Shown here: positions 3,600-64,000 of the stretch, one piece after another | How the letters are laid out: each line of letters begins with the position of its first letter | Position numbering within the stretch: the stretch's first letter is position 1 | NCBI GenBank assembly: GCA_964371625.1 | Contig: CAYJMP010000001.1 | Location: 398,673 to 462,672 of the forward strand | DNA: 64,000 nt | Source: an uncultured Ignavibacteria bacterium | Lineage (GTDB): Bacteria; Zixibacteria; MSB-5A5; WJJR01 | Direction of reading: 5' to 3' | Position numbers and translations under genes: made by a program | Notes under the pieces: generated by a model | What the model was told of the DNA's origin: nothing | The model's input: the letters and a program-made list of their open reading frames with translations, nothing else | Database searches by the model: none

Positions 3600-3777
3600 C
3601 GAACCCTCCAGGCGGACGGATTGTGGCCATGTCAGACTGGGATGCCCGTGCTTCACTTCTTCGATGTGCTGGCTCATCTGTCTTACACTCTGCGAAAGAT
3701 GCCGTTCCGCACAATTAGCTTGTACTTCACACCGCTTCGCCCGAGCGTCGGACAGTGCTCCGTTCGACTTCTTCAAG

Positions 3778-3919
3778 GGAGGGCGAGGCTCCTGCCGAGC
3801 CGCCGCACTTTGGAGGCACGAGCGACTCCAATCCTTAACCTCATTCCTCCACTCCCGAACTCATCGCAAGCGGCGCGCAGTCGTTGCTATAGCGGCTCGG
3901 CAGGAGCCTCGCCCTCCCA
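3778..3919. repeat. inverted-repeat element (27-bp perfect arms GGGAGGGCGAGGCTCCTGCCGAGCCGC separated by ~88 bp), MITE/REP-like
   Basis: Arms at 3778-3804 and 3893-3919 are exact reverse complements. A related copy lies at 21007-21080. Confidence 0.8.
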
Positions 3920-4549: not shown

Positions 4550-6589
4550 CTACCGGTACAGCGGAAACATCGTGGCAAGCGCCGCGAATTCGCCCACGAG
4601 CGGCAGGATGATGCGGATGCGATCGCGGTACGCCTTTAGTCCCGTCGCCAATGCATGAGCGGCGTCGTGCTCCATGTGGGCCAGACTCTCCATATTCAGC
4701 ACCACTCGATCATCCTTGCGCGCTAGTGTAGCGCGGAGATCCGCCACAAATTGTGCCGCAGCATCGGAATTGAGGCGCCCCTTGAGGTGTACCCAAACTG
4801 TCGAGGCGGGTCGGTGTTCCACGCGGATAGAGAGGCCAGTGGGGTGCTCGCCTGCAAACTTGCGCCATCCGCGTCTTGCGGGAACACCGTGCAATCGGAA
4901 CGAATGCCTCACCAAGGGGGGATGCTGGAAGAGGTTGAGTTTCAATGTTAATCCGGTCCAAAGTGCGAGTCCGACCGCGGCGACAGAGAGAAACCGTTCC
5001 CGCCAGGTTGGATTTCCGATCGCGGCATGAAGCCGCTTTTGAAGCTGCCCAATTCCACGCCGAACTGCAGCGGTCGGTCCGAGGAGCCGTCCGGCCAGGA
5101 AGATCGGGTAGGCATTCCGCAGATCACCGGCGATCCGCTCTGACTGCAATCGAAGGAACGGATTCGAAGAATCGTGGAGTTTTAGATAACCATCGAGCCA
5201 GCGTTCGACCGAGCGATAAAGGACTGGCCCCAACCGACGAAAATCCTCTTTGAAGCAATGCTCCTGTGCCGTTTCGATTTCGGCGGACGTCATCGTGGGA
5301 TGCGTGACCATCGCATAGAACCCCGTACCACGCAGGTAAAATCGTTCCGGGTCACTGGCCACTTCTGGCAGGAGACTGCCCTCACGAACGACTTGATCGT
5401 AGAACGGAGTGCCGGGACAAGGTCCGTAGATCAGAAACTGCGTCAGAACCGGGCGCAGGGCCAGCAGACCCGCAAGCTCCTCCTCGATAATCTCCGGGGT
5501 TTGGTAAGGGAAGCCCACAATCATCGATGCGAGAATCGTGATACCGTGTTCGCGGTATTCATTGAATATGTCCTCGACCGGGCGTCCCGCCTGCTTGGCA
5601 TACCCGGATCGCGTCCCCTCATAGCCGATCCACATCCCATCGATTCCCATTTCGAGGATCTCGGTCACGGTGTACTGGCTCAGGGCTTTGATGCTGGCAA
5701 AAATGAAGATCGAGAGGGGCTTTCCGCCGCGCAGAACGGCATCGCGGAATTCCAGGGCCCGACGGCGGTTGAGCAGGAAATCCTCGTCAATGATCAGGAT
5801 GGAGAGCTTGGGGTCGACCTCGAGGTAGCGTTCGACCACGTGATAGATGTCGGCCCCGGTGGGGAGCAGACGGATGTGTTTGCGTTTGAAGAAATGCGAC
5901 GTACAGCAAAAATCGCAACCGTTGGGGCATCCCAGACCGCCAAAGACGATCCCGGTTCGAGACGCTTCCCGTCCGAACACACGAAGTGGATTGATAATTA
6001 GCGGGTGGCGGTAGGGCATTTCGATTTCAGGCTCACCCAGCAGCCGCCGCATGAAGCCGACTCCCTCTTCGCGGCAGATGTGGTCGCAATAGGGGAGAAG
6101 CAGTTCGTCGGGAGCCACAGTGCCATATCCACCAAGGACGATCTGTGACTGCGGCGAGTACTCACGGATCAGCGCCACGACTTCCTTCATCCGGTGGTAT
6201 GTCGCCAACACGAATGACAGGCCGACAACCGCGTATCCGTTTGCCAACTCCCGGATGAGCTCCTTGCGGGAGGGATACTGGAGAACTGCCGTGGGGGCTT
6301 CCAGGTTCTCGGCAATATATTCCATGGAGAACTGAATGTGATGCGAACGGGGGCTAAACATCCCCTGGGCGCGCGTCACCTGCTCGTGGAGGAGCTCGTA
6401 GCCAACACTGGGGGAGTCGCCATAACGCACTCCCAGCGGGCGGCACACCGTTGTGAGCAAGACCTTCTTCGTCGCGCCAGCCATCCCCTCACATGGTATC
6501 AAGTCAGGTGTCTGGTTGTGGCTGCGCGCGCTTGGGGTCGTCATCATGTTATCCGAAGTCCCATAGTACGGTTGGATCGAATGCGACAC
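4550..6589 (-). CDS. B12-binding domain radical SAM protein with C-terminal STAS-like domain
   Basis: N-terminal B12-binding Rossmann-like region. CPNGCDFC matches CxxxCxxC. The ~200-aa C-terminal extension has a predicted TM helix and STAS-like pattern (VWVHLKGRLNSDAAAQFVADLRATL...VVLNMESLAHMEHDAAHAL). GTG start; internal MM start possible. Confidence 0.75.
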   Translation of the reverse strand: MSHSIQPYYGTSDNMMTTPSARSHNQTPDLIPCEGMAGATKKVLLTTVCRPLGVRYGDSPSVGYELLHEQVTRAQGMFSPRSHHIQFSMEYIAENLEAPTAVLQYPSRKELIRELANGYAVVGLSFVLATYHRMKEVVALIREYSPQSQIVLGGYGTVAPDELLLPYCDHICREEGVGFMRRLLGEPEIEMPYRHPLIINPLRVFGREASRTGIVFGGLGCPNGCDFCCTSHFFKRKHIRLLPTGADIYHVVERYLEVDPKLSILIIDEDFLLNRRRALEFRDAVLRGGKPLSIFIFASIKALSQYTVTEILEMGIDGMWIGYEGTRSGYAKQAGRPVEDIFNEYREHGITILASMIVGFPYQTPEIIEEELAGLLALRPVLTQFLIYGPCPGTPFYDQVVREGSLLPEVASDPERFYLRGTGFYAMVTHPTMTSAEIETAQEHCFKEDFRRLGPVLYRSVERWLDGYLKLHDSSNPFLRLQSERIAGDLRNAYPIFLAGRLLGPTAAVRRGIGQLQKRLHAAIGNPTWRERFLSVAAVGLALWTGLTLKLNLFQHPPLVRHSFRLHGVPARRGWRKFAGEHPTGLSIRVEHRPASTVWVHLKGRLNSDAAAQFVADLRATLARKDDRVVLNMESLAHMEHDAAHALATGLKAYRDRIRIILPLVGEFAALATMFPLYR

Positions 6590-6781
6590 AAGGATTGGAT
6601 TATCATATTTGTGTTACCGCCCCTTAATGGTGATAGTAATAGTCCTGATATTATCAATGACTGCGCGGGTCAGCCGCAAAGTCTGCAGAACAGCGATTGG
6701 CAGTTCGCGCAACATGTGATTAGATTCATCAGTGGCCGTGGCGGGCCAACTGTGACCTGCGCATCGAACCGAGGGACTTCT

Positions 6782-7618
6782 ATGGACAGCTCACTGACTG
6801 ACAAAGTCGCGCAATTGATGAACACCCACCGTTCGATCCGGCAGTACAAGCCGGACCCGCTCGATGATGCGCTGGTCGAGACCGTACTTCAGCAAGCGGT
6901 GGATGGTTCATCATCATCGGGGAACCTGAACACCTATTCGATGATCCTGACGCGCGACCGGGAGCGCAAGGCGCGGCTCTGTGTGTTGCATGGGGATCAG
7001 GAGATGATCGACCAGGCCCCGCTTCTTATCACGTTTTGCGCTGACACATACCGGACCCGGCGCTGGCTCCGTCTACGCGGAGCGCGTGACAACTTCAACA
7101 ACTTCGAAGGGTTTCTCGTTGCGGCGTTCGATGCGATCATTGTCGCGCAATCCGTGGCACTGGGATTCGAGTCCCACGGCCTCGGAATCTGCTTCCTCGG
7201 CACAACGCTTTGGGCCGCCGACCAAATCGCTGAGGTCCTGGAACTGCCCGAAACTTGCTTCCCCGTGACCAGTCTGGTGGTGGGAGTGCCGAACGAGGAC
7301 CCCGGCAAACGCGACCGTTTGCCTCTGCGGGCACTTGTCCACAGCGAAAAGTACCAAAAACTCACTGACGAACAATTTCTCGAGCACTTTTCCGAGCGCG
7401 AGGTCAGGGGGTGGAATCGCTATCGGTCGATGGGCGAGGAGATGGTTCGCGAGATGGAACGTCTGAATATCACCTCGCTGGCGCAGTACTACACCAGCGA
7501 GATCAAGTACTCCCCCGAAAACTCCCTGGCCGCGTCAAAGCGCCTGCTTGATCTGCTGGCGGTAAAGGGCTTTACACAGCGAGCCCCTAAGGGATCTGAC
7601 GCCAGTAGCGGCCGGTAG
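6782..7618 (+). CDS. nitroreductase family protein
   Basis: MDSSLTDKVAQLMNTHRSIRQYKPDPL is a nitroreductase N-terminus. The long ORF 6338.. is an upstream extension overlapping the radical SAM gene. ATG at 6782. Confidence 0.75.
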   Translation: MDSSLTDKVAQLMNTHRSIRQYKPDPLDDALVETVLQQAVDGSSSSGNLNTYSMILTRDRERKARLCVLHGDQEMIDQAPLLITFCADTYRTRRWLRLRGARDNFNNFEGFLVAAFDAIIVAQSVALGFESHGLGICFLGTTLWAADQIAEVLELPETCFPVTSLVVGVPNEDPGKRDRLPLRALVHSEKYQKLTDEQFLEHFSEREVRGWNRYRSMGEEMVREMERLNITSLAQYYTSEIKYSPENSLAASKRLLDLLAVKGFTQRAPKGSDASSGR

Positions 7619-27097: not shown

Positions 27098-28969
27098 TTA
27101 TGGGCACGGCTGGCAGAATTCGGCTGCCGGGCTCGCATTGCGAAAAGCGACATTGACCGTTTTAACCACGTCGATGATATCAGTCGAAGATGTGCAGTCC
27201 ACGTCGGTTGTCTCATGATCACAATTGACGTTGGGATCGGGGATCGCCGCAAGAGCTCGAAACGCAACGTTGATTACCTGCACAACATCGACGATGTCGC
27301 GAAAGCCGTCGCAGGCGCCGGGATCGGCGTGGCAGTCACAGACGCACTGGCAGGCGTCGCCTATGCCATCGTTGTCGGCGTCGGCCTGATCGGGATTGGC
27401 AAGTGCCGGGCAATTATCGAAGCAGGAGATTCCGTCGCCATCCGGATCGGCGCACACCTCGACAATGGTCAGCGTCTGATTGACCGGGACATTGGCGCTG
27501 TCGGTTACCGACCCCGATGGCCACTCGACACGGAACGAGTCAATCACGGTCGCATCGCCCAGCCCGAAATGAACGATCAGACTGTTGTGACAGAGAAAAC
27601 TGTTCTGGGTTTGGATCTCACGGTGCTGGCGCGTGGCGATTCCATTGATTGTAGCCCACAGCCAGATTGTCGCTCCGATCGCGGCGCCGTTGCTCTGCTG
27701 ACCGACGCACTTGATCTTCAACCAGTTCAGTAAACCATCGGTGTCGTTGCGGAGAAGATAGCGACGCGATGCGCCGACACCCGCAACGAAGAGGTCGAGG
27801 TCGCCATCCTCGTCCATGTCCCCTGCCGTCGCGCCATAACTCGACGTGGGCTCTCCATTGACTTCGAAGAGCGTCAGGGATGTGAACGTCCCATCACCAT
27901 TATTATGGTAGTAGCTGTTTCGGGCATTGTTGTCGTTTGTCACAAAGCAGTCACGATCGCCGTCGTTGTCAAAGTCCTCCCAGATATTGGCCAATGAAAT
28001 GAAGGCATCGGTGGCGATGGCCCCGGTCGTGATCTGCGTGTAGACGCCGCCGTCATTGCGATAGAGATCATTGGGACGGATCCCGGGACTGGCGCCACCC
28101 CAGTTGGTGCGATAGGCGTCCAGATCGCCGTCGTTGTCGTAATCGACCCAGTTCCAAACCTGTCCATCGGCGACGTCGGTTGCGATGGGCGCGGTCGTAA
28201 TCTTGGTGAACCCTGCAGTCCCGCTCTCAATCAAGTGATTGTGATAGAGAAAGTCAGGAGCCGGAGACGGCGATGCCGGCCCACTGCCGATGAACAAATC
28301 GATATCGCCGTCCAGGTCATAGTCGGACCAATTCAAACTCGTGAACGGTTCGAATTCCGAGACGACCGCGCCTGTGTCGACACGCGTGAATGTGTAGTTG
28401 GGCGGGCCATCGTTATGAAACATCTGATTCTTGCTCCCCGGCGCCGGTACAAACCCGGTCGGGAAGGCGATGATGAGATCAATGTTCCCGTCGTTATCGT
28501 AGTCTCCCCATCCCGGACTCCAGCCGCGCGTGTCGGTTGTGCCGATGTCGGGAACGGTCACCTTCGTGAACCACGGCGGCGCACCGTTGTTGCGATAAAG
28601 ACCTGAAGTATTGCCGGCAATGAAGCAATCAAGATCACCGTCGTTGTCATAGTCGCCCCAGGCAACTCCGCGAAACAATCCCGGGTCCGAAGAGATGGCG
28701 CCGGCGTCGACCGCCGTCAGACGCGTGAATGCCCCGCCGCCATCATTGTGGTAGAGGAAGTTGGCGTTTTGATTCACGACTAACAGGTCCTCGCGACCGT
28801 CGCCGTCATAGTCTCCCCAGGCACACCCGGTGTAGGCAGTGATGGTCGAGTCAGTAGCGACGGGGTTGCCGAGATCGGTGATCCGCGTAAAGCCCTGCGC
28901 CCATGTTGACGTGGGCGCACTCAGCGCTGTCATGATGACGAGCGCCGCTGTCAGGTTGAACAGTTGCAT
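27098..28969 (-). CDS. FG-GAP repeat (integrin-alpha/CRTAC1-like) secreted protein with TSP type-3 and dockerin-like C-terminus
   Basis: Repeated WGDYDNDGDLD/WVDYDNDGDLD beta-propeller blades. C-terminal DPDGDGISCFDNCPALANPDQADADNDGIGD. Confidence 0.75.
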   Translation of the reverse strand: MQLFNLTAALVIMTALSAPTSTWAQGFTRITDLGNPVATDSTITAYTGCAWGDYDGDGREDLLVVNQNANFLYHNDGGGAFTRLTAVDAGAISSDPGLFRGVAWGDYDNDGDLDCFIAGNTSGLYRNNGAPPWFTKVTVPDIGTTDTRGWSPGWGDYDNDGNIDLIIAFPTGFVPAPGSKNQMFHNDGPPNYTFTRVDTGAVVSEFEPFTSLNWSDYDLDGDIDLFIGSGPASPSPAPDFLYHNHLIESGTAGFTKITTAPIATDVADGQVWNWVDYDNDGDLDAYRTNWGGASPGIRPNDLYRNDGGVYTQITTGAIATDAFISLANIWEDFDNDGDRDCFVTNDNNARNSYYHNNGDGTFTSLTLFEVNGEPTSSYGATAGDMDEDGDLDLFVAGVGASRRYLLRNDTDGLLNWLKIKCVGQQSNGAAIGATIWLWATINGIATRQHREIQTQNSFLCHNSLIVHFGLGDATVIDSFRVEWPSGSVTDSANVPVNQTLTIVEVCADPDGDGISCFDNCPALANPDQADADNDGIGDACQCVCDCHADPGACDGFRDIVDVVQVINVAFRALAAIPDPNVNCDHETTDVDCTSSTDIIDVVKTVNVAFRNASPAAEFCQPCP

Positions 28970-45277: not shown

Positions 45278-45525
45278 CTTCGACTCCCTCCGGACACTCC
45301 GACCCAGACTAATCGCAGCTACGCGATGGAGCTCTCAATCTGATTTCTTCTGGCGCAATGCGCAAGGTGGGCGTGCGCCCCACGGCTTGCCATGAGTAAG
45401 CTACCTATCAGTTCGTCGTCGGGGCAACTCGAATGCCTGACCGGTGGCTAGCGGGACGTGCCGGCTGCCCCTGACGCCCTCGCCAGAGTCACCCACGAGC
45501 GTGCACCGCTTCGGGGGAAGGGAGC

Positions 45526-48117: not shown

Positions 48118-49014
48118 CTAACTCCTTTGCCTCCCGAGCGACGCGATTGCAGCCTTGAGAACTTGCAGACAGATTTCTGCAGTGTGCCTATCGGGGTTGA
48201 AGCCAGAAGACAATTGTTGATACGGATGAATGTAATTGCGAAAGTCCCTTAGAGCATGGCTAAACTTCTTCACATCGAGCCCAAGATAATCGAGCTCGCA
48301 GGCAACATCTATAAGTTGAGCTAGAGTCCATTCATGAAACTGCCGGACCTTTCCACTCGGATCTCTGGGACTATTTGGTGCCTGGTTGAATTCTCGCGGA
48401 TTCGCGCACGCGACTCCAAGAAGTAGTCCTTCTAACACACTTCCGCAATGGAATATGACCGCAAGCGGGGAATCCGCTTCTGCGCAACGAACAGCCTCCG
48501 CGATCCTCCCCTCCAGGACTAGGATGAACGGTCCTGCAGAAGAAATCTGACTTAGCGATACCGCTCCGAAATCCTTCTTTAGGAACTCGTTCCCGGAATC
48601 CTTCTGCTGGGCCTGCTTGCCAAGAAGTTTCTCTACACTCCGATTTGCGCGTTCAAGCAAAGCGGAGTCATTCGGAGTTGGGGTCGGTGACTTGTATCGC
48701 CAATAATCGAGCCGTTCAGAAAGCACCTTGCCGACTAACTGGTCATTTTCGCGCTCGATGAACGCCCGCAGTCGCTTGGCCTTAGAGTCCCCATTGAACG
48801 CGTACTTTTCGGCATAGATATCGACCCCGACCGTCTCACGGAAAAACTCAGAGAACGTGCGATTGGAAAAATCCAATACATAGCCCCCCGCCATGCCGAG
48901 AAGCTGCTCAATGCAATCCCTGTCAACCAGTTTCAGGCTGCTCAACGAACAACTCCAATCAGGTTCTGTCAAGCGAGTGGCCCTGACGTCCTCGTCAGGG
49001 CCCACTTGACTCAC
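48118..49014 (-). CDS. hypothetical protein with C-terminal HEPN-like Rx4-6H motif (Abi-like?)
   Basis: LRDFRNYIHPYQQ followed by a final helix. Lower-GC segment. The 5' end overlaps a REP palindrome, so the true start is probably internal (e.g. ATG 48894). Confidence 0.45.
   Translation of the reverse strand: MSQVGPDEDVRATRLTEPDWSCSLSSLKLVDRDCIEQLLGMAGGYVLDFSNRTFSEFFRETVGVDIYAEKYAFNGDSKAKRLRAFIERENDQLVGKVLSERLDYWRYKSPTPTPNDSALLERANRSVEKLLGKQAQQKDSGNEFLKKDFGAVSLSQISSAGPFILVLEGRIAEAVRCAEADSPLAVIFHCGSVLEGLLLGVACANPREFNQAPNSPRDPSGKVRQFHEWTLAQLIDVACELDYLGLDVKKFSHALRDFRNYIHPYQQLSSGFNPDRHTAEICLQVLKAAIASLGRQRS
48979..49003. repeat. REP-like palindrome GGCCCTGACG-N4-CGTCAGGGCC (family A)
   Basis: Many further copies are listed in the findings. 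Confidence 0.75.
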
Positions 49015-49195
49015 GTATCATAGGCAGCTGCAGCACCATCACGACAGCCCCCTCGTCTTATGAGCCCTCGACATCGATTTGATCTGCACCTATAGTAAAC
49101 CCTGACGAGGGCGTCAGGGCCACTATCTTTTCGGATCGGTCACACAAGATATTCAGGGCCTCTCAGGGCGACTCGTCCGTGTGTGGGCTTATTTC

Positions 49196-49678
49196 TCAGT
49201 TGCCTTTTCGGGGAATCCTAGAGAAGACAATACCTAGGAATAGGAGCAAACCCAGCTTAGCCCAGTCAAGCACGCTAGCTTCGCCAGCCCCGATCTTCGC
49301 AATCGACGTGGGCAAGCCAATCGGGGAAATCAACCACGCGACAATGAACGGCAGAACAAACAAAATAAGTCGCATTAAAGGCATATGCACCTCCTTGATT
49401 TCTGCTATGTACTCATTCCACGACGTGATCCTTGCTCTCCACCAATACCGCCTTTCCGTCATGATCACGGCTCTCACCAGACATATTTCGCCGGCGTACG
49501 CCGTCACTCCGCGTAATCTGTCCTGTGTCATCGCGTGTTTGATCCCGATTCGAACGGCGCCCAAGATTAGCCATTCCGTCCCAAGCAAAGCACTCCGAGA
49601 CGAAGGCCTCATAGCGATCTTGCACTTCATTGCAGATGGCGTATTGCGCTCATTCTGGCTATCCGGGCACTTGCCCAA
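49196..49678 (-). CDS. hypothetical protein with C-terminal 2-TM segment
   Basis: ORF only. Low-GC island. Possibly two small genes. Confidence 0.3.
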   Translation of the reverse strand: MGKCPDSQNERNTPSAMKCKIAMRPSSRSALLGTEWLILGAVRIGIKHAMTQDRLRGVTAYAGEICLVRAVIMTERRYWWRARITSWNEYIAEIKEVHMPLMRLILFVLPFIVAWLISPIGLPTSIAKIGAGEASVLDWAKLGLLLFLGIVFSRIPRKGN

Positions 49679-49686
49679 GGAGTGCC

Positions 49687-50139
49687 TCAGCTTTTTGGGT
49701 TATTTTCTGCCAGAATACTTAGGATTGTCCATTGTCCTCCTTCTTTCGTGAGCGTGAAAACCGTTCGAAAATCTGTGCGCCAGGTTTCGGTGTGTCCAGT
49801 CACCAGCACCACCGCCAAATTGTCCCCATGGGGAACGGTGCTAATCTCATCGACGACATGAGCCCACTGCTTTTCCGTTCCCAACCACTTTATGAATTCT
49901 TCGGCAGGCTTGGTCGAGAGGCTAGATGGCCCTCCCCCACTACCGAACGCAGCAACGTATGACACCGGAGAAAAGAACAACTCCCGCATTTCATCGAATC
50001 GCTTGTTAGTGATGTCATCAAAATAAGTTCTGACGACTGACTCGGGGCCGGTCGCGGATTTGCCTGTCACGTACGCGTGGCTGACTGCGATCGCGAACAA
50101 CATCAGCACTGTCGAAATTGCAAGCCTGAGTGTTGTCAT
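49687..50139 (-). CDS. secreted NTF2-like / SnoaL-like fold protein
   Basis: Signal peptide. ~130 aa with alpha+beta cone pattern. Confidence 0.45.
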   Translation of the reverse strand: MTTLRLAISTVLMLFAIAVSHAYVTGKSATGPESVVRTYFDDITNKRFDEMRELFFSPVSYVAAFGSGGGPSSLSTKPAEEFIKWLGTEKQWAHVVDEISTVPHGDNLAVVLVTGHTETWRTDFRTVFTLTKEGGQWTILSILAENNPKS

Positions 50140-50429
50140 AAGCCTCTCCTGACTGATTGAGTGATATAGTTACGAGCGTGGATTGATCGCTTGCTCATGC
50201 CGCGTGCCCCACGACGGGAGGCCCTGACACCCTCGTCATGGCTCGCATAGCTCACGTATCGGAGGCAGTCATACCATCATCACTGGAATGCCTTCGCGTC
50301 ATGGGCTTTCGGCGTCGATTCGATACGTGCCTAAAATAAACCCTGACGAGGGCGTCAGGGCCACACTTTTGGGGATCGGTGTCACAAGATTGTCAGGGAC
50401 TGTCAGGGCCCCCCGCAATCTCAGTAGAG

Positions 50430-55648: not shown

Positions 55649-55714
55649 TGTGTTCACTCCAGGCTTCGTGGCCCTGACGTGCTCTTGGGGCGCGTTAAAA
55701 AAGTCAAAAAAGGA

Positions 55715-55849
55715 GCAACAAGGATTGCTTCGTCGGTCGACGATAGAGCTGTCTTCCTCCTCGCAATGACGGTGATTCTCTTTGTGTTAAGAAGAGGATC
55801 GTCATTGCGAGGAGGAGCGCTCTTTGCGACGACGAAGCAATCTTTGTTG
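55715..55849. repeat. MITE-like element, second copy of the 46969-47108 family
   Basis: Outer IR AGCAACAAGGATTGCTTCGTCG/CGACGAAGCAATCTTTGTTGCT. Inner IR CCTCCTCGCAATGACG/CGTCATTGCGAGGAGG. Confidence 0.8.
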
Positions 55850-55879
55850 CTTTTTGTGACGCTGAACATACCACTCTGT

Positions 55880-57164: not shown

Positions 57165-57362
57165 GTGACGCCTCCTGAGTTGTGCGTAATTCATTTCACT
57201 GTATTGACTCACCTATGAACCGAAAGAATCCTACCCCATCGAGATGGTTTCCGAGAATGTAGCCACTCGGTCGGCATGTCGGCTATCAGATTTGATACCT
57301 GATGAGTACGAAACCGGACGGGTTGCCCTGATGCCCTCGTCATGCCAGCCGGTCGTAAGTGA

Positions 57363-57845: not shown

Positions 57846-57903
57846 TCACCTTTCTATCGGGACGGTCAGGGCTTGTCCGCCGCTGGCGGGCCACGCGTCG
57901 GCT

Positions 57904-58284: not shown

Positions 58285-58337
58285 ACAGTGACCTCCCCGG
58301 GTGCCTCACACTTACAGTGTAAACAGCTTGCTGTGAG

Positions 58338-58503
58338 GCGTAACTCAAGACACGGAGCAATCCGCAATCTCATCACAGGAGAGCTCCCGCCTATCGGGAG
58401 TTTGTTGCGGATTCGATATGCGCGTAAAGTAAACCATCCCACGGTCCCGAGCAAGTCGAGGGAGACGAGGGCGTCAGGGTTTGTCCGCCTCTGGCGGGCC
58501 ACA
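58338..58503 (+). repeat. left copy of ~166-bp direct repeat (internally palindromic) flanking thioredoxin/peptide cassette
   Basis: About 95% identical to 59735-59900. Contains hairpin GCAATCCGCAA...TTGCGGATTCG and a REP-A tail. Confidence 0.85.
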
Positions 58504-58620
58504 CATTTGGGAATTGGGCACACATACTTCCATAAGCCCCTCAGGGCACCCGTCCGCCACCCGCTCCCCGGCCGCCCGTCGTGGTCTCAGACCAAGGCGG
58601 GTCGTCACGTATGGAAACTC

Positions 58621-58649
58621 TTGACTTAGATTTTTGAGTTCTCTATAAG
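58621..58649 (+). promoter_or_regulatory. sigma70-type promoter TTGACT-N17-TATAAG
   Basis: Exact -35, 17-bp spacer, and 5/6 match at -10 in a locally AT-rich stretch just upstream of the thioredoxin-like gene. Confidence 0.6.
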
Positions 58650-58659
58650 ATTATGCGAA

Positions 58660-59307
58660 TTGATCGGTCACAGGCCGAGTACCTCATCGGGTGTCGAATT
58701 GACGGGACGACGCAAAGCCCTTAAGCTCGTTGCGCTATTTGTGCTGGTTGGCTTAGTGGGCTCTGCCCTGGGAGTCGGCTCCGGAAGTGCCTACAGGTGG
58801 TGGAGGTCGCATAGGGCGCAAGAAGCGATGGCTGATAGTATGAACGCGTACTTGGCGCAGCGGATTCACGGCTTCGGAATAGGAGACATGTTTCCTGACA
58901 TTCCGCTGCAGCCTCCGAATGGCGGACCCGCATCAATGATCGGTGATCTATTGCCCAATGGCGGGCTTGTCTACTATGCCTCTCCGGGTTGTGGTTCGTG
59001 TCGCGAATCCCTCGCCGACCTGCAGTATGTCCTAGACGCACGGGATACGGCCACCTTGGATATACTGGTAATTGCCGTCGGCACCATGGAGGATGGAGCG
59101 CAGTTCCTCACGTCTACCGGATTCAAACAACCGTTTGTGATGGACATACAGAATTCACTTTCAGTTGAGTATGGAGTTGAGATTTTCCCTACCTACTTTT
59201 GCTTGGACGAGAACCTAAGAGTTCTGTCATTTGGCACGGACGCTACGTCGGCACAACGGCTTTCGGATATCATATTCGAGTGTGCAACTAACGAGCCACG
59301 ACTCTAG
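58660..59307 (+). CDS. membrane-anchored TlpA/ResA-like thiol:disulfide oxidoreductase (thioredoxin fold)
   Basis: N-terminal TM anchor. YASPGCGSCRE is a CxxC active site. TTG start at 58660 or 58699. Confidence 0.7.
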   Translation: MIGHRPSTSSGVELTGRRKALKLVALFVLVGLVGSALGVGSGSAYRWWRSHRAQEAMADSMNAYLAQRIHGFGIGDMFPDIPLQPPNGGPASMIGDLLPNGGLVYYASPGCGSCRESLADLQYVLDARDTATLDILVIAVGTMEDGAQFLTSTGFKQPFVMDIQNSLSVEYGVEIFPTYFCLDENLRVLSFGTDATSAQRLSDIIFECATNEPRL

Positions 59308-59328
59308 AGGAAAGGAGGTGAGAATCGT

Positions 59329-59601
59329 ATGAATCGTCGGTCAACAGTTACAGCATCACTTCTGCTGTTCACATTCGCGTTCTCGGTTGCATTTGGTGTG
59401 GTACTTACGCAACCAGAGGAGTCAGGGGCGTTGGAATGCGCGCCGTGCAATTGCTTTGCCGGGGGTTGCTATGGGTCAATCGGCCCTCACACGAACTGGA
59501 TCTGTCAACCCAGCACCCGCGTGCAGTGCTACATGGCGAACGAGCCACCGTGGTTTCCTGAGTATGTGCCTCCGTATTGCGGGGCCCACTGCCCGTACTA
59601 A
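59329..59601 (+). CDS. secreted cysteine-rich peptide precursor (8 Cys in ~55-aa mature region)
   Basis: AGGAGGTGA RBS 7 nt from ATG. Signal peptide. CAPCNCFAGGCYG...C...C...CGAHCPY. Confidence 0.65.
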   Translation: MNRRSTVTASLLLFTFAFSVAFGVVLTQPEESGALECAPCNCFAGGCYGSIGPHTNWICQPSTRVQCYMANEPPWFPEYVPPYCGAHCPY

Positions 59602-59618
59602 AGAGTAGTTCTCGGAGT

Positions 59619-59649
59619 CAAGCCGGGACGATCAGTGAGTCCCGGCTTG
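59619..59649 (+). terminator. rho-independent terminator
   Basis: AAGCCGGGAC-loop-GTCCCGGCTT then a T-containing tail. Confidence 0.55.
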
Positions 59650-59734
59650 GCCGTTTAATGTGGCGGCGTGCCTTGACACGAGCCAAGAGCAGTGGACGGG
59701 TGGCCCTGACGAAGGCTCTATCTCGTCAGAGCTT

Positions 59735-59900
59735 GCGTAACTCAAGACACGGAGCAATCCGCAATCTCATCACAAGAGAGCTCCCGCCTATCGGAAGTTT
59801 GTTGCGGATTCGATATGCGCCTAAAGTAAACCACCAAACGGTCCCGAGCAAGTCGAGGGAGACGAGGGCGTCAGGGTCTGTCCGCCTCTGGCGGGCCACC
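59735..59900 (+). repeat. right copy of ~166-bp direct repeat
   Basis: See 58338-58503. Confidence 0.85.
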
Positions 59901-63674: not shown

Positions 63675-64000
63675 TGTGATCTCCTATTTGAAAGCTCTCG
63701 TAGGGTGCGTGCGGCTTTACTGCAGAACCCACCACTTTCTACTCGTTGGGACCAGAAACGGTGGGTGCAAAGAGCGCACCCACCCTACAGGTCTTTTTGG
63801 ATCGGTCACGCATGATCGCTTTGTCTGTCACGGCCACCCGTCGAGGTCTGTCAGGGCTTGTCCGCCTCGGGCGGGCCACCCCGCCGCCTGGGCTTGTTTC
63901 GCTTCCCGATGCTCTATAACTTGCGGCACAAATGCACCACCACTCTATCCAAGTGAGGAGCAGGAGGGCATCATGACCGCGTCCGTCATAGGCAGAGTGA

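Follow-up and report, generated by a model that had tools for sequence, protein, structure and literature searches.

In a 64,000-nt stretch of DNA from an uncultured bacterium (contig CAYJMP010000001.1, here called the window), we examined a compact plus-strand unit of two genes, the first encoding a membrane-anchored thioredoxin-fold oxidoreductase (the redoxin) and the second a small, cysteine-rich, putatively exported peptide. An initial annotation of the window had pictured this unit as a mobile cargo module, transcribed from its own promoter, closed by its own terminator and bracketed by two direct repeats. We observed that the two genes do belong together, since a gene for a related peptide lies downstream of the redoxin gene at all five loci at which this redoxin subfamily was found. 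The unit consists of the following features.

58621–58649, plus strand: sigma-70-like promoter candidate, TTGACT (58621–58626), 17-nt spacer, TATAAG (58644–58649), locally AT-rich
58660–59307, plus strand: redoxin open reading frame (ORF), open from TTG 58660, 215 amino acids (aa), with a CGSC motif
58699–59307, plus strand: membrane-anchored ResA/CcmG/TlpA-class thioredoxin-fold oxidoreductase, 202 aa from the probable start TTG 58699
59312–59321, plus strand: Shine-Dalgarno sequence of the peptide gene, AAGGAGGTGA, as read from the sequence
59329–59601, plus strand: peptide precursor ORF, 90 aa, with 8 Cys, all past the hydrophobic N-terminus
59617–59651, plus strand: hairpin after the peptide gene, candidate terminator, with a 13-bp stem (z = −4.7) and a poor U-tract, GGCCGUUUAAUG

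The peptide gene begins 21 nt past the redoxin stop codon, and the strong ribosome-binding site that had been proposed in front of it is indeed present.

The redoxin is an anchored ResA/CcmG/TlpA-class protein

The redoxin passed the gathering thresholds of two Pfam families (Redoxin PF08534, 30.8 bits against a cut-off of 26.6; AhpC-TSA PF00578, 27.3 bits against a cut-off of 26). It scored far under the NCBIfam cut-offs of the ResA and StoA models and is therefore not an equivalog of either protein. When a profile of its subfamily was compared with the PDB, it matched Etrx1/2, ResA, StoA and DsbE-like proteins. An AlphaFold2 (AF2) model of the redoxin reached a mean predicted local distance difference test (pLDDT) score of 75, with 80–90 in the catalytic domain, and contained a long N-terminal helix spanning residues 17–68. 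The best Foldseek matches of this model were ResA, DsbE/CcmG, SdbA, Etrx2, StoA and TlpA, with a probability of 1.00 and target-normalised TM-scores of 0.76–0.84 to ResA, DsbE, SdbA and Etrx2. By Pfam, PDB profile, model and structural search alike, the redoxin is a ResA/CcmG/TlpA-class thioredoxin-fold CxxC protein with an N-terminal anchor, in agreement with the TlpA-like, membrane-anchored oxidoreductase first proposed.

In the 215-aa numbering, the transmembrane segment lies at about residues 20–42, the CGSC motif at 111–114, and the cis-Pro loop reads YGVEIFPTYF. Alignment of the five redoxin sequences showed that C111, C114 and P177 (the CxxC and the cis-Pro) are invariant, as are G34, L37, G38, G42 and Y45 of the transmembrane region. 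The hydrophobic segment at ~20–42 is conserved among the redoxins and is directly preceded by RRK; from the positive-inside rule, we predict a type-II anchored protein with its catalytic domain facing the periplasm.

The homologues begin at about residue 14 of the window redoxin, and the real start is therefore probably TTG 58699, giving a protein of 202 aa. In every public assembly the redoxin is called from internal ATGs, at 123, 155 or 159 aa and without the conserved anchor; gene callers overlooked the non-ATG (TTG) start. The members of the redoxin's 90% cluster (P0002–P0006) could be taken for strain diversity, a reading we rejected, as they come from the same organism and differ in their start-codon calls.

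The peptide is predicted to be exported and matches no known family

The peptide precursor carries a predicted Sec-type signal at about residues 1–23, ending in AFG, which would leave a mature part of ~67 aa, and we predict that the peptide is exported by the Sec route. We found no match to it in Pfam, NCBIfam or the PDB, so the early description of a secreted 8-Cys peptide of an unrecognised family holds, with export as a prediction. A likeness to cytochrome c (PDB 4xxl, E = 0.55) was rejected, as the signal peptide drives the score and the CxxC motifs are unaligned.

Alignment of the peptide with the relatives described below identified as invariant the FAFS of the signal h-region, A34 and C37-x2-C40-N41-C42. 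The four complete peptides contain 8, 8, 10 and 10 Cys, always an even number, which fits full disulfide pairing. The mature peptide has few His or Met residues, and no signature of a known metal-binding family was found in it. The peptide appears to found a small, previously undescribed family, characterized by an invariant CxxCNC and 8–10 Cys.

The two genes are paired at every homologous locus

Word-indexed homology searches with the peptide and redoxin queries returned self-matches only. We then have, from an exhaustive phmmer search of the peptide against 1.84 billion cluster representatives, two true relatives only, P0008 and P0009, which are 45–49% identical. A third candidate, P0007 (1572 aa, E = 2e-14 from 8 matching stretches), was dismissed: at 26% identity, it owes its score to identical tandem Ig-like repeats that add up. 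The genes for P0008 and P0009 each lie directly downstream of an AhpC-TSA/Redoxin gene, and the products of these upstream genes align with the window redoxin over their full length, anchor included. A profile search with the redoxin alignment added P0012 and P0013, after which the score falls from 200 to 41 bits (a generic Kouleothrix redoxin). At both of these loci a peptide gene of the family again lies downstream, the one at L019 being cut by the contig end. In exhaustive searches of about 15 billion proteins, the redoxin subfamily thus comprises the window protein and four further members, and the redoxin gene is followed by a family peptide gene in 5/5 loci, at a spacing of 19–42 nt. By sequence comparison, the redoxin and peptide genes form a rare, conserved two-gene unit.

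The genes around this unit are unrelated between loci. The neighbours are DUF7670 and RibD_C genes in the window, genes for a helix-turn-helix (HTH) protein and an unknown protein at L016, and a TetR regulator gene with two genes for Cys-rich lipoprotein-like paralogues at L017; L018 and L019 are contigs of 1.3–1.4 kb, too short for informative neighbours. No gene for CcdA or DsbD, the donors that would feed a reductant of this class, was noticed near any of the five loci. A peptide pattern scan of metagenome contigs gave 600 pattern matches, none of which was confirmed. Neither the redoxin nor the peptide nor the repeat described below was found in viral contigs, and there is thus no sign of phage carriage.

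At L017 (169–1405), the two lipoprotein-like paralogues beside the gene pair are 191 and 207 aa long, and their genes share ~72% DNA identity over 179 nt. Both might serve as additional thiol-rich substrates outside the cytoplasm.

Transcription signals and signs of acquisition

The sequence TTGACT-17-TATAAG that had been read as the unit's own promoter is present, but a consensus promoter scan skips it, because the last position of the −10 hexamer is not T. Similarly, the proposed terminator is a genuine 13-bp hairpin, but its U-tail is weak and a terminator scan does not pick it up. From these sequence features, a promoter and a terminator function are both plausible.

To place the unit in its surroundings, we used 77.2 kb of contiguous sequence, joined from L021, the window and L001 and spanning −7.6 to 69.6 kb in window coordinates. 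From ~41 kb to 69.6 kb of this sequence, small accessory genes follow one another in one orientation, on the minus strand, in a run that resembles a cassette array; between ~41 and 69 kb these include DinB, DUF1801 (two), RibD_C (two), DUF7670 (two), GNAT and methyltransferase genes, some of them paralogue pairs. The redoxin–peptide pair is the sole multi-gene plus-strand unit in this run and is inverted relative to all its neighbours. Its GC content of 0.535 lies below the 0.576 of the window as a whole, and only 2.7% of segments of this length are equally poor in GC. The GC at third codon positions (GC3) of the two genes is 0.58 and 0.62, compared to 0.68 ± 0.07 for neighbouring genes. The inversion, the low GC and GC3, and a count of just five loci, in differing contexts, across about 15 billion proteins make horizontal acquisition likely, and the gene pair was probably acquired in this way. 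The acquired look of the proposed mobile cargo module, with its patchy and rare distribution, is thereby retained; the role given to the repeats as its ends is not, as described next.

The flanking repeats belong to a regional palindromic family

The gene pair lies between two direct repeats, R1 and R2, and related elements occur elsewhere in the region. We list them here.

58338–58502, plus strand: R1, left direct repeat, 165 nt; in order, box A, central hairpin 58359–58413, box B TAAAGTAAACC at 58425, a 26-nt insert, the GACGAGGGCGTCAGGG core at 58464 and hairpin B GTCCGCCTCTGGCGGGC at 58483–58499
59735–59899, plus strand: R2, right direct repeat, 165 nt, with modules as in R1
58303–58339, plus strand: hairpin GCCTCACA...TGTGAGGC directly left of R1, −13.7 kcal/mol, z = −0.9, unexceptional
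58503–58565, plus strand: right-flank module of R1, ACATTTGGGAATTGGGCACACATAC...CTCAGGGC, with homologues to the right of E49 and E50
59698–59734, plus strand: left-end hairpin of R2, GTGGCCCTGACG...CGTCAGAGC, homologous to the left ends of E49 and E50 and absent from R1
48970–49125, plus strand: E49, with terminal inverted hairpins and without the R-type inserts
50211–50366, plus strand: E50, family member that folds as a long hairpin (z = −5.2)
66241–66518, window-equivalent (L001 16913–17190): R3, third R-type copy, just outside the window and 6.5 kb to the right, with 83% identity to R2
57865–57894, plus strand: solo hairpin-B module between DinB and DUF7670
63850–63879, plus strand: solo hairpin-B module with a CTTTTTGGATCGGTCAC module upstream
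45469–45488, minus strand: solo copy of the hairpin-A core
57326–57341, minus strand: solo copy of the hairpin-A core, just past the DinB stop codon
65380, window-equivalent: solo module

A repeat search showed that R1 and R2 are 96% identical, in direct orientation, with starts 1397 nt apart, so that the two direct repeats originally given as ~166 bp do bracket the unit. The long hairpin reported inside the repeat was also borne out: in R1, it folds at −24.6 kcal/mol (z = −3.4), and 0/200 shuffles fold as well. In our alignment of family members (A5), R1, R2, E49 and E50 align end to end with ~80 invariant columns and share one order of modules, namely a left hairpin, box A, a variable central hairpin, box B (TAAARTAAACC), a right hairpin and CCAC, with shared right flanks; the R-type copies follow this plan with two extra inserts. 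The hairpin at 58303–58339 takes the place of the GTGGCCCTGACG left-end hairpin of R2, E49 and E50. The right flank of R1 is homologous to those of E49 and E50 in the same alignment, so the element reaches past the block of R1/R2 identity. E49 and E50 are 73% identical over 150 nt, with terminal inverted repeats of ~24 nt each. The 16-nt core GACGAGGGCGTCAGGG occurs at 9 window sites compared to 0.06 expected by chance, and the hairpin-B module at 4 compared to 0.03. Roughly half of the spacers in the run of small genes carry no element.

We considered a known structured RNA family for the repeats and rejected it. An Rfam scan gave nothing at gathering thresholds, with chance matches to miRNA hairpins at permissive thresholds, and RNAalifold on 5 repeat copies returned a covariation term of +3.7, which gives no support for an RNA fold. 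We therefore treated them as DNA repeats. The repeat core sequence was not found in the literature searched.

The family extends to other genomes. We found the terminus TAAACCCTGACGAGGGCGTCAGGG at 10 sites, spread over 9 contigs, in one metagenome-assembled genome (MAG) labelled Ignavibacteria, where it lies between ordinary, partly large genes of mixed size and orientation; a Zixibacteria MAG has it as well. At one of these sites, L010, it forms a 250-bp element whose terminal inverted repeat is 34 nt long. A scan of genome contigs with the repeat terminus gave these matches in MAGs and none on contigs of the source genome, and a scan of metagenome contigs with an organism-specific repeat pattern gave 0 matches.

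Taken together, the repeats make up a modular palindromic family, resembling repetitive extragenic palindromes (REPs) and their doublets (REPINs) or miniature inverted-repeat transposable elements (MITEs), that fills many spacers of a 21-kb region. At the four homologous loci (L016–L019, on short contigs), we found no R-type or E-type repeat and no flanking direct repeat of any kind. Since the repeats were not found at the homologous loci and occupy many other spacers, R1 and R2 do not define a cassette. They belong to a repeat family of the host and not to the gene-pair module, for which they provide at most homology for recombination around it. The close match between R1 and R2 suggests that they were recently duplicated locally or gene-converted, an event that may or may not date from the insertion.

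Several further repeats were observed. E49 and E50 bracket two minus-strand genes, one for a Lumazine_bd_2/SnoaL-like protein of 150 aa (49687–50139) with an atypically low GC3 of 0.57 and one for a small membrane protein (~49200–49384). On L006, a contig of the Zixibacteria MAG, the hairpin-A terminus occurs twice in tandem direct orientation (277–296 and 429–448), 152 nt apart, so that the family forms doublets of both kinds, inverted and direct. A palindromic repeat of another type, GGGAGGGCGAGGCTCCTGCCGAGCCGC, lies in the window ~90 nt from its inverse (3777–3805 and 3892–3918), and a 96% identical copy lies at L003 6949–6977, in the same Ignavibacteria MAG; the two genomes thus share at least two repeat families. 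Finally, a long hairpin-like element lies at 55702–55861 between two DUF1801 paralogues, and was seen only through chance matches to miRNA precursors in the permissive Rfam scan.

Proposed function and alternative explanations

We propose that the anchored redoxin and the peptide constitute a self-contained two-gene accessory module. The Sec-exported peptide would emerge in the periplasm as the dedicated substrate of the redoxin, and the anchored redoxin would form or shuffle its four disulfides. The product would be a compact, disulfide-rich secreted peptide that may resemble a bacteriocin, a toxin or a signal. That the anchored redoxin serves as the dedicated periplasmic partner of the co-translated, Sec-exported peptide is a prediction we hold with moderate confidence; we infer both the enzyme–substrate relation and the redox direction. 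Disulfide formation or isomerisation is favoured because Cys counts are even in all complete members, because the mature region is without metal-site signatures, and because PedC, BdbA and BlpG set a precedent and SdbA, one of the best structural matches, is an oxidant with this class of fold. The anchor of the redoxin (GxxxG-like) and the h-region of the peptide signal (AFSFAFG) are both unusually conserved. As a speculation, this conservation could reflect an intramembrane contact between the two before signal cleavage.

If correct, the pair would represent a minimal, portable "enzyme plus substrate" unit in which an oxidoreductase is hard-wired to one disulfide-rich peptide, in uncultured and probably diderm bacteria. 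The redoxins would form a separate ResA-like subfamily in which gene order hints at the substrate, a clue that enzymes of this class seldom offer. Possible roles for the peptide are those of an antimicrobial, a toxin or a signal scaffold, and the pair could provide a compact system for making disulfide-rich peptides.

A number of observations weigh against this proposal and against the separation of the module from the repeats. The AF2 model of the peptide is poor (pLDDT 54), with the N-terminal helix at residues 3–26 alone confident. ResA, CcmG and TlpA relatives are typically reductants, which makes the direction of the reaction uncertain. The family is tiny, with 5 loci, 4 of which lie on contigs of 1.3–3.5 kb, where a more distant association with a mobile element or repeat is possible. 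R1 and R2 are 96% identical to each other, compared to ≤83% to other family members, which would fit a duplication linked to the module's arrival. All ~10 element sites lie at 45.4–66.5 kb, with none in the other 53 kb of the 77.2 kb; by our own arithmetic, the chance of such confinement under uniform scatter is ~1e-5. The elements are also uniformly oriented (box B in 5/5 cases, hairpin B in 6/6) and antisense to the run of small genes. As judged from their placement, confinement and single orientation are unusual for a genome-wide REP family, and they leave room for an array-type role.

The reaction could run in the opposite direction, with the redoxin as a reductant that keeps the thiols of the peptide reduced for binding Cu, Zn, Cd or Hg, or a non-metal ligand that reacts with thiols, and the peptide as a metallothionein-like buffer or chaperone of the periplasm. 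ResA and CcmG reduce apocytochromes. TlpA acts as a reductant on ScoI and CoxB (PMC6696091). The closest structural and sequence relatives of the redoxin are indeed mainly reductants (ResA, DsbE/CcmG, TlpA, StoA and Etrx), the invariant motif of the peptide contains a CxxC, and one homologous locus comes from a mining-impacted (Hg) rice paddy sample. However, the same peptide features that favour disulfide formation, an even Cys count in every complete member and few His or Met without a known metal-binding family signature, speak against a metal buffer, no metal-resistance genes are adjacent in any of the five loci, and SdbA shows that the fold also serves an oxidant among the top matches. 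We consider a reductant role fairly unlikely and retain the redoxin as the probable catalyst of disulfide formation or isomerisation.

The other alternatives concern the repeats. In the form closest to the initial annotation, R1 and R2 would be the ends of a mobile cassette that is excised as a circle carrying one R copy and re-inserted at another R. R1 and R2 are direct and are the closest pair in the family, the DNA that they enclose is inverted and compositionally atypical, and the E49/E50 pair likewise brackets a gene unit of low GC3. Against this, the four homologous gene pairs are without such repeats, many spacers hold repeats without redoxin–peptide cargo, so that the repeats do not always flank this cargo, and R1 lacks the left-end hairpin that is present at R2. 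We identified the organism's contigs through the flanking DUF7670 gene and observed an identical arrangement in 23/23, with no empty or repeat-only site among the 23 assemblies. We also searched for an integrase, transposase or other recombinase among ~37 window ORFs scanned with Pfam and among the called genes of L001, L020 and L021 (−7.6 to 69.6 kb), and found none. The repeats as such, with some ten sites in 21 kb that include a third R-type copy and E49/E50, and with relatives in MAGs labelled as other phyla, are better described as a host family than as cassette boundaries, and mobility through R1 and R2 is improbable.

The confinement and orientation of the elements might instead mark an undescribed kind of cassette array at 45–69 kb, in which the oriented palindromic repeats (GTGG-headed hairpins A and B, boxes A and B) would serve as sites for a recombinase encoded elsewhere that exchanges small accessory units. 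The exchanged units would include the redoxin–peptide pair, inverted and with its own promoter, and the pair bracketed by E49 and E50, and the 30-nt terminus common to MAGs labelled as other phyla would then indicate a widespread cassette-exchange system. We regard this reading, which builds on repeat placement, as very doubtful.

A conventional integron, with the 41–69 kb run as its cassette array, the repeats as attC sites and the redoxin–peptide pair as an inverted cassette with its own promoter, is extremely improbable: small co-oriented accessory genes with paralogue pairs and oriented imperfect palindromes of 150–200 nt, region-confined and of one orientation in many spacers, would suit it, but the span from −7.6 to 69.6 kb yielded neither a tyrosine recombinase nor an IntI, the element ends carry no RYYYAAC...GTTRRRY cores (the sole AAC/GTT-like motifs read GTTTA...TAAAC, in reversed order), about half of the spacers are without an element, and the termini in the Ignavibacteria MAG lie between large genes in mixed orientation on 9 contigs. 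Our preferred reading thus remains that of a probably acquired redoxin–peptide module embedded among host repeats. The repeat family is a secondary puzzle, with its regional clustering, its single orientation and its presence in MAGs labelled as different phyla.

Other features of the sampled sequence

Three further features were observed at a distance from the gene pair. At window 4550–7618, a gene for a B12-binding radical SAM protein (679-aa ORF) adjoins one for a nitroreductase-family protein, with GNAT genes close by; they may form a small modification cluster without connection to the gene pair. To the left of the window, three tandem cold-shock-domain genes (67, 77 and 77 aa) lie at L021 8168–9110. 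At window 27935–28661, three 49-nt direct repeats (71–73% identical) lie inside an FG-GAP/ASPIC-UnbV gene (27098–28969) and most likely encode internal FG-GAP repeats.

Comparison with known systems

The repeats resemble REPs, REPINs, bacterial interspersed mosaic elements (BIMEs) and MITEs in being short, GC-rich imperfect palindromes headed by GTGG (GTGG-CCCTGACG..., GTGG-CCCGCCAGAGGCGGAC). REPs are by definition short imperfect palindromes that carry a conserved GTAG/GTGG on their 5' side, and the complementary strand of R1/R2 carries such heads, in GTGG-CCCTGACGnnnnCGTCAGGG and GTGG-CCCGCCAGAGGCGGAC. As with REPs and REPINs, we observed singlets, inverted doublets of 150–250 nt (E49, E50 and L010) and mosaics of modules, all strictly intergenic. 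Compared to REPs and MITEs, the family is confined to 21 kb of the 77 kb sampled and uniformly oriented, and its 30-nt terminus is common to Ignavibacteria and Zixibacteria MAGs; no REP-associated tyrosine transposase (RAYT; Y1 transposase) gene was found in the 77 kb. E49, E50 and L010 share with MITEs their terminal inverted repeats and a size of 100–300 bp, whereas R1 is without the left repeat. Inspection revealed no evident target-site duplications at these three elements, and there is no transposase in the loci. The likeness to integron cassettes lies in the small co-oriented accessory genes, the oriented imperfect palindromes between them and the inverted cassette with a promoter-like site. 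The differences are the many bare spacers, the dispersal of the family between ordinary genes in another genome, the lack of an IntI in the sequence from −7.6 to 69.6 kb, and the element ends, which by eye read GTGGCCCTGACG...CGTCAGGGCCAC and not as the R''/R' cores of attC; on core motifs and IntI, we rejected an attC identity.

For the redoxin, the ResA/CcmG/TlpA group provides the best solved-structure matches both by sequence profile and by structure. The window protein has in common with ResA, CcmG (DsbE), TlpA, StoA, Etrx and SdbA a thioredoxin fold with the ResA-type insertion, a CxxC, a cis-Pro loop of the form YGVxxFPxxFxxD, and an N-terminal anchor with the catalytic domain outside. 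It is 17–21% identical to structures of the ResA/CcmG/TlpA group. In the subfamily, the first Cys follows a G or D where a W is usual, and the two residues inside the CxxC differ between members (GS, ES, YW and GA). Unlike the ResA/CcmG/TlpA group, the subfamily has a long conserved helix between anchor and domain, and it pairs with a Cys-rich peptide gene and not with genes for cytochrome c maturation, Sco/Cox or sporulation.

The gene pair itself is most readily compared to bacteriocin clusters. CxxC thioredoxin-fold proteins encoded with disulfide-containing bacteriocins, namely PedC (pediocin), BdbA/BdbB (sublancin 168) and BlpG (thermophilin), are thought to ensure correct disulfides (PMC4919988). 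As in the PedC, BdbA and BlpG clusters, a gene for a Cys-containing secreted peptide adjoins a CxxC thioredoxin-fold gene, here in 5/5 loci. Those systems belong to Firmicutes and use double-glycine leaders, dedicated ABC transporters and immunity genes, whereas the peptides described here have a Sec-type signal, none of the five loci has a transporter or immunity-like gene next to the pair, and the host is probably diderm because outer-membrane beta-barrel genes are present. The peptide is not known to act as an antimicrobial. In conclusion, the redoxin–peptide module fits a known theme, the pairing of a disulfide-containing secreted peptide with a thioredoxin-fold protein encoded beside it, and does not overturn current understanding.

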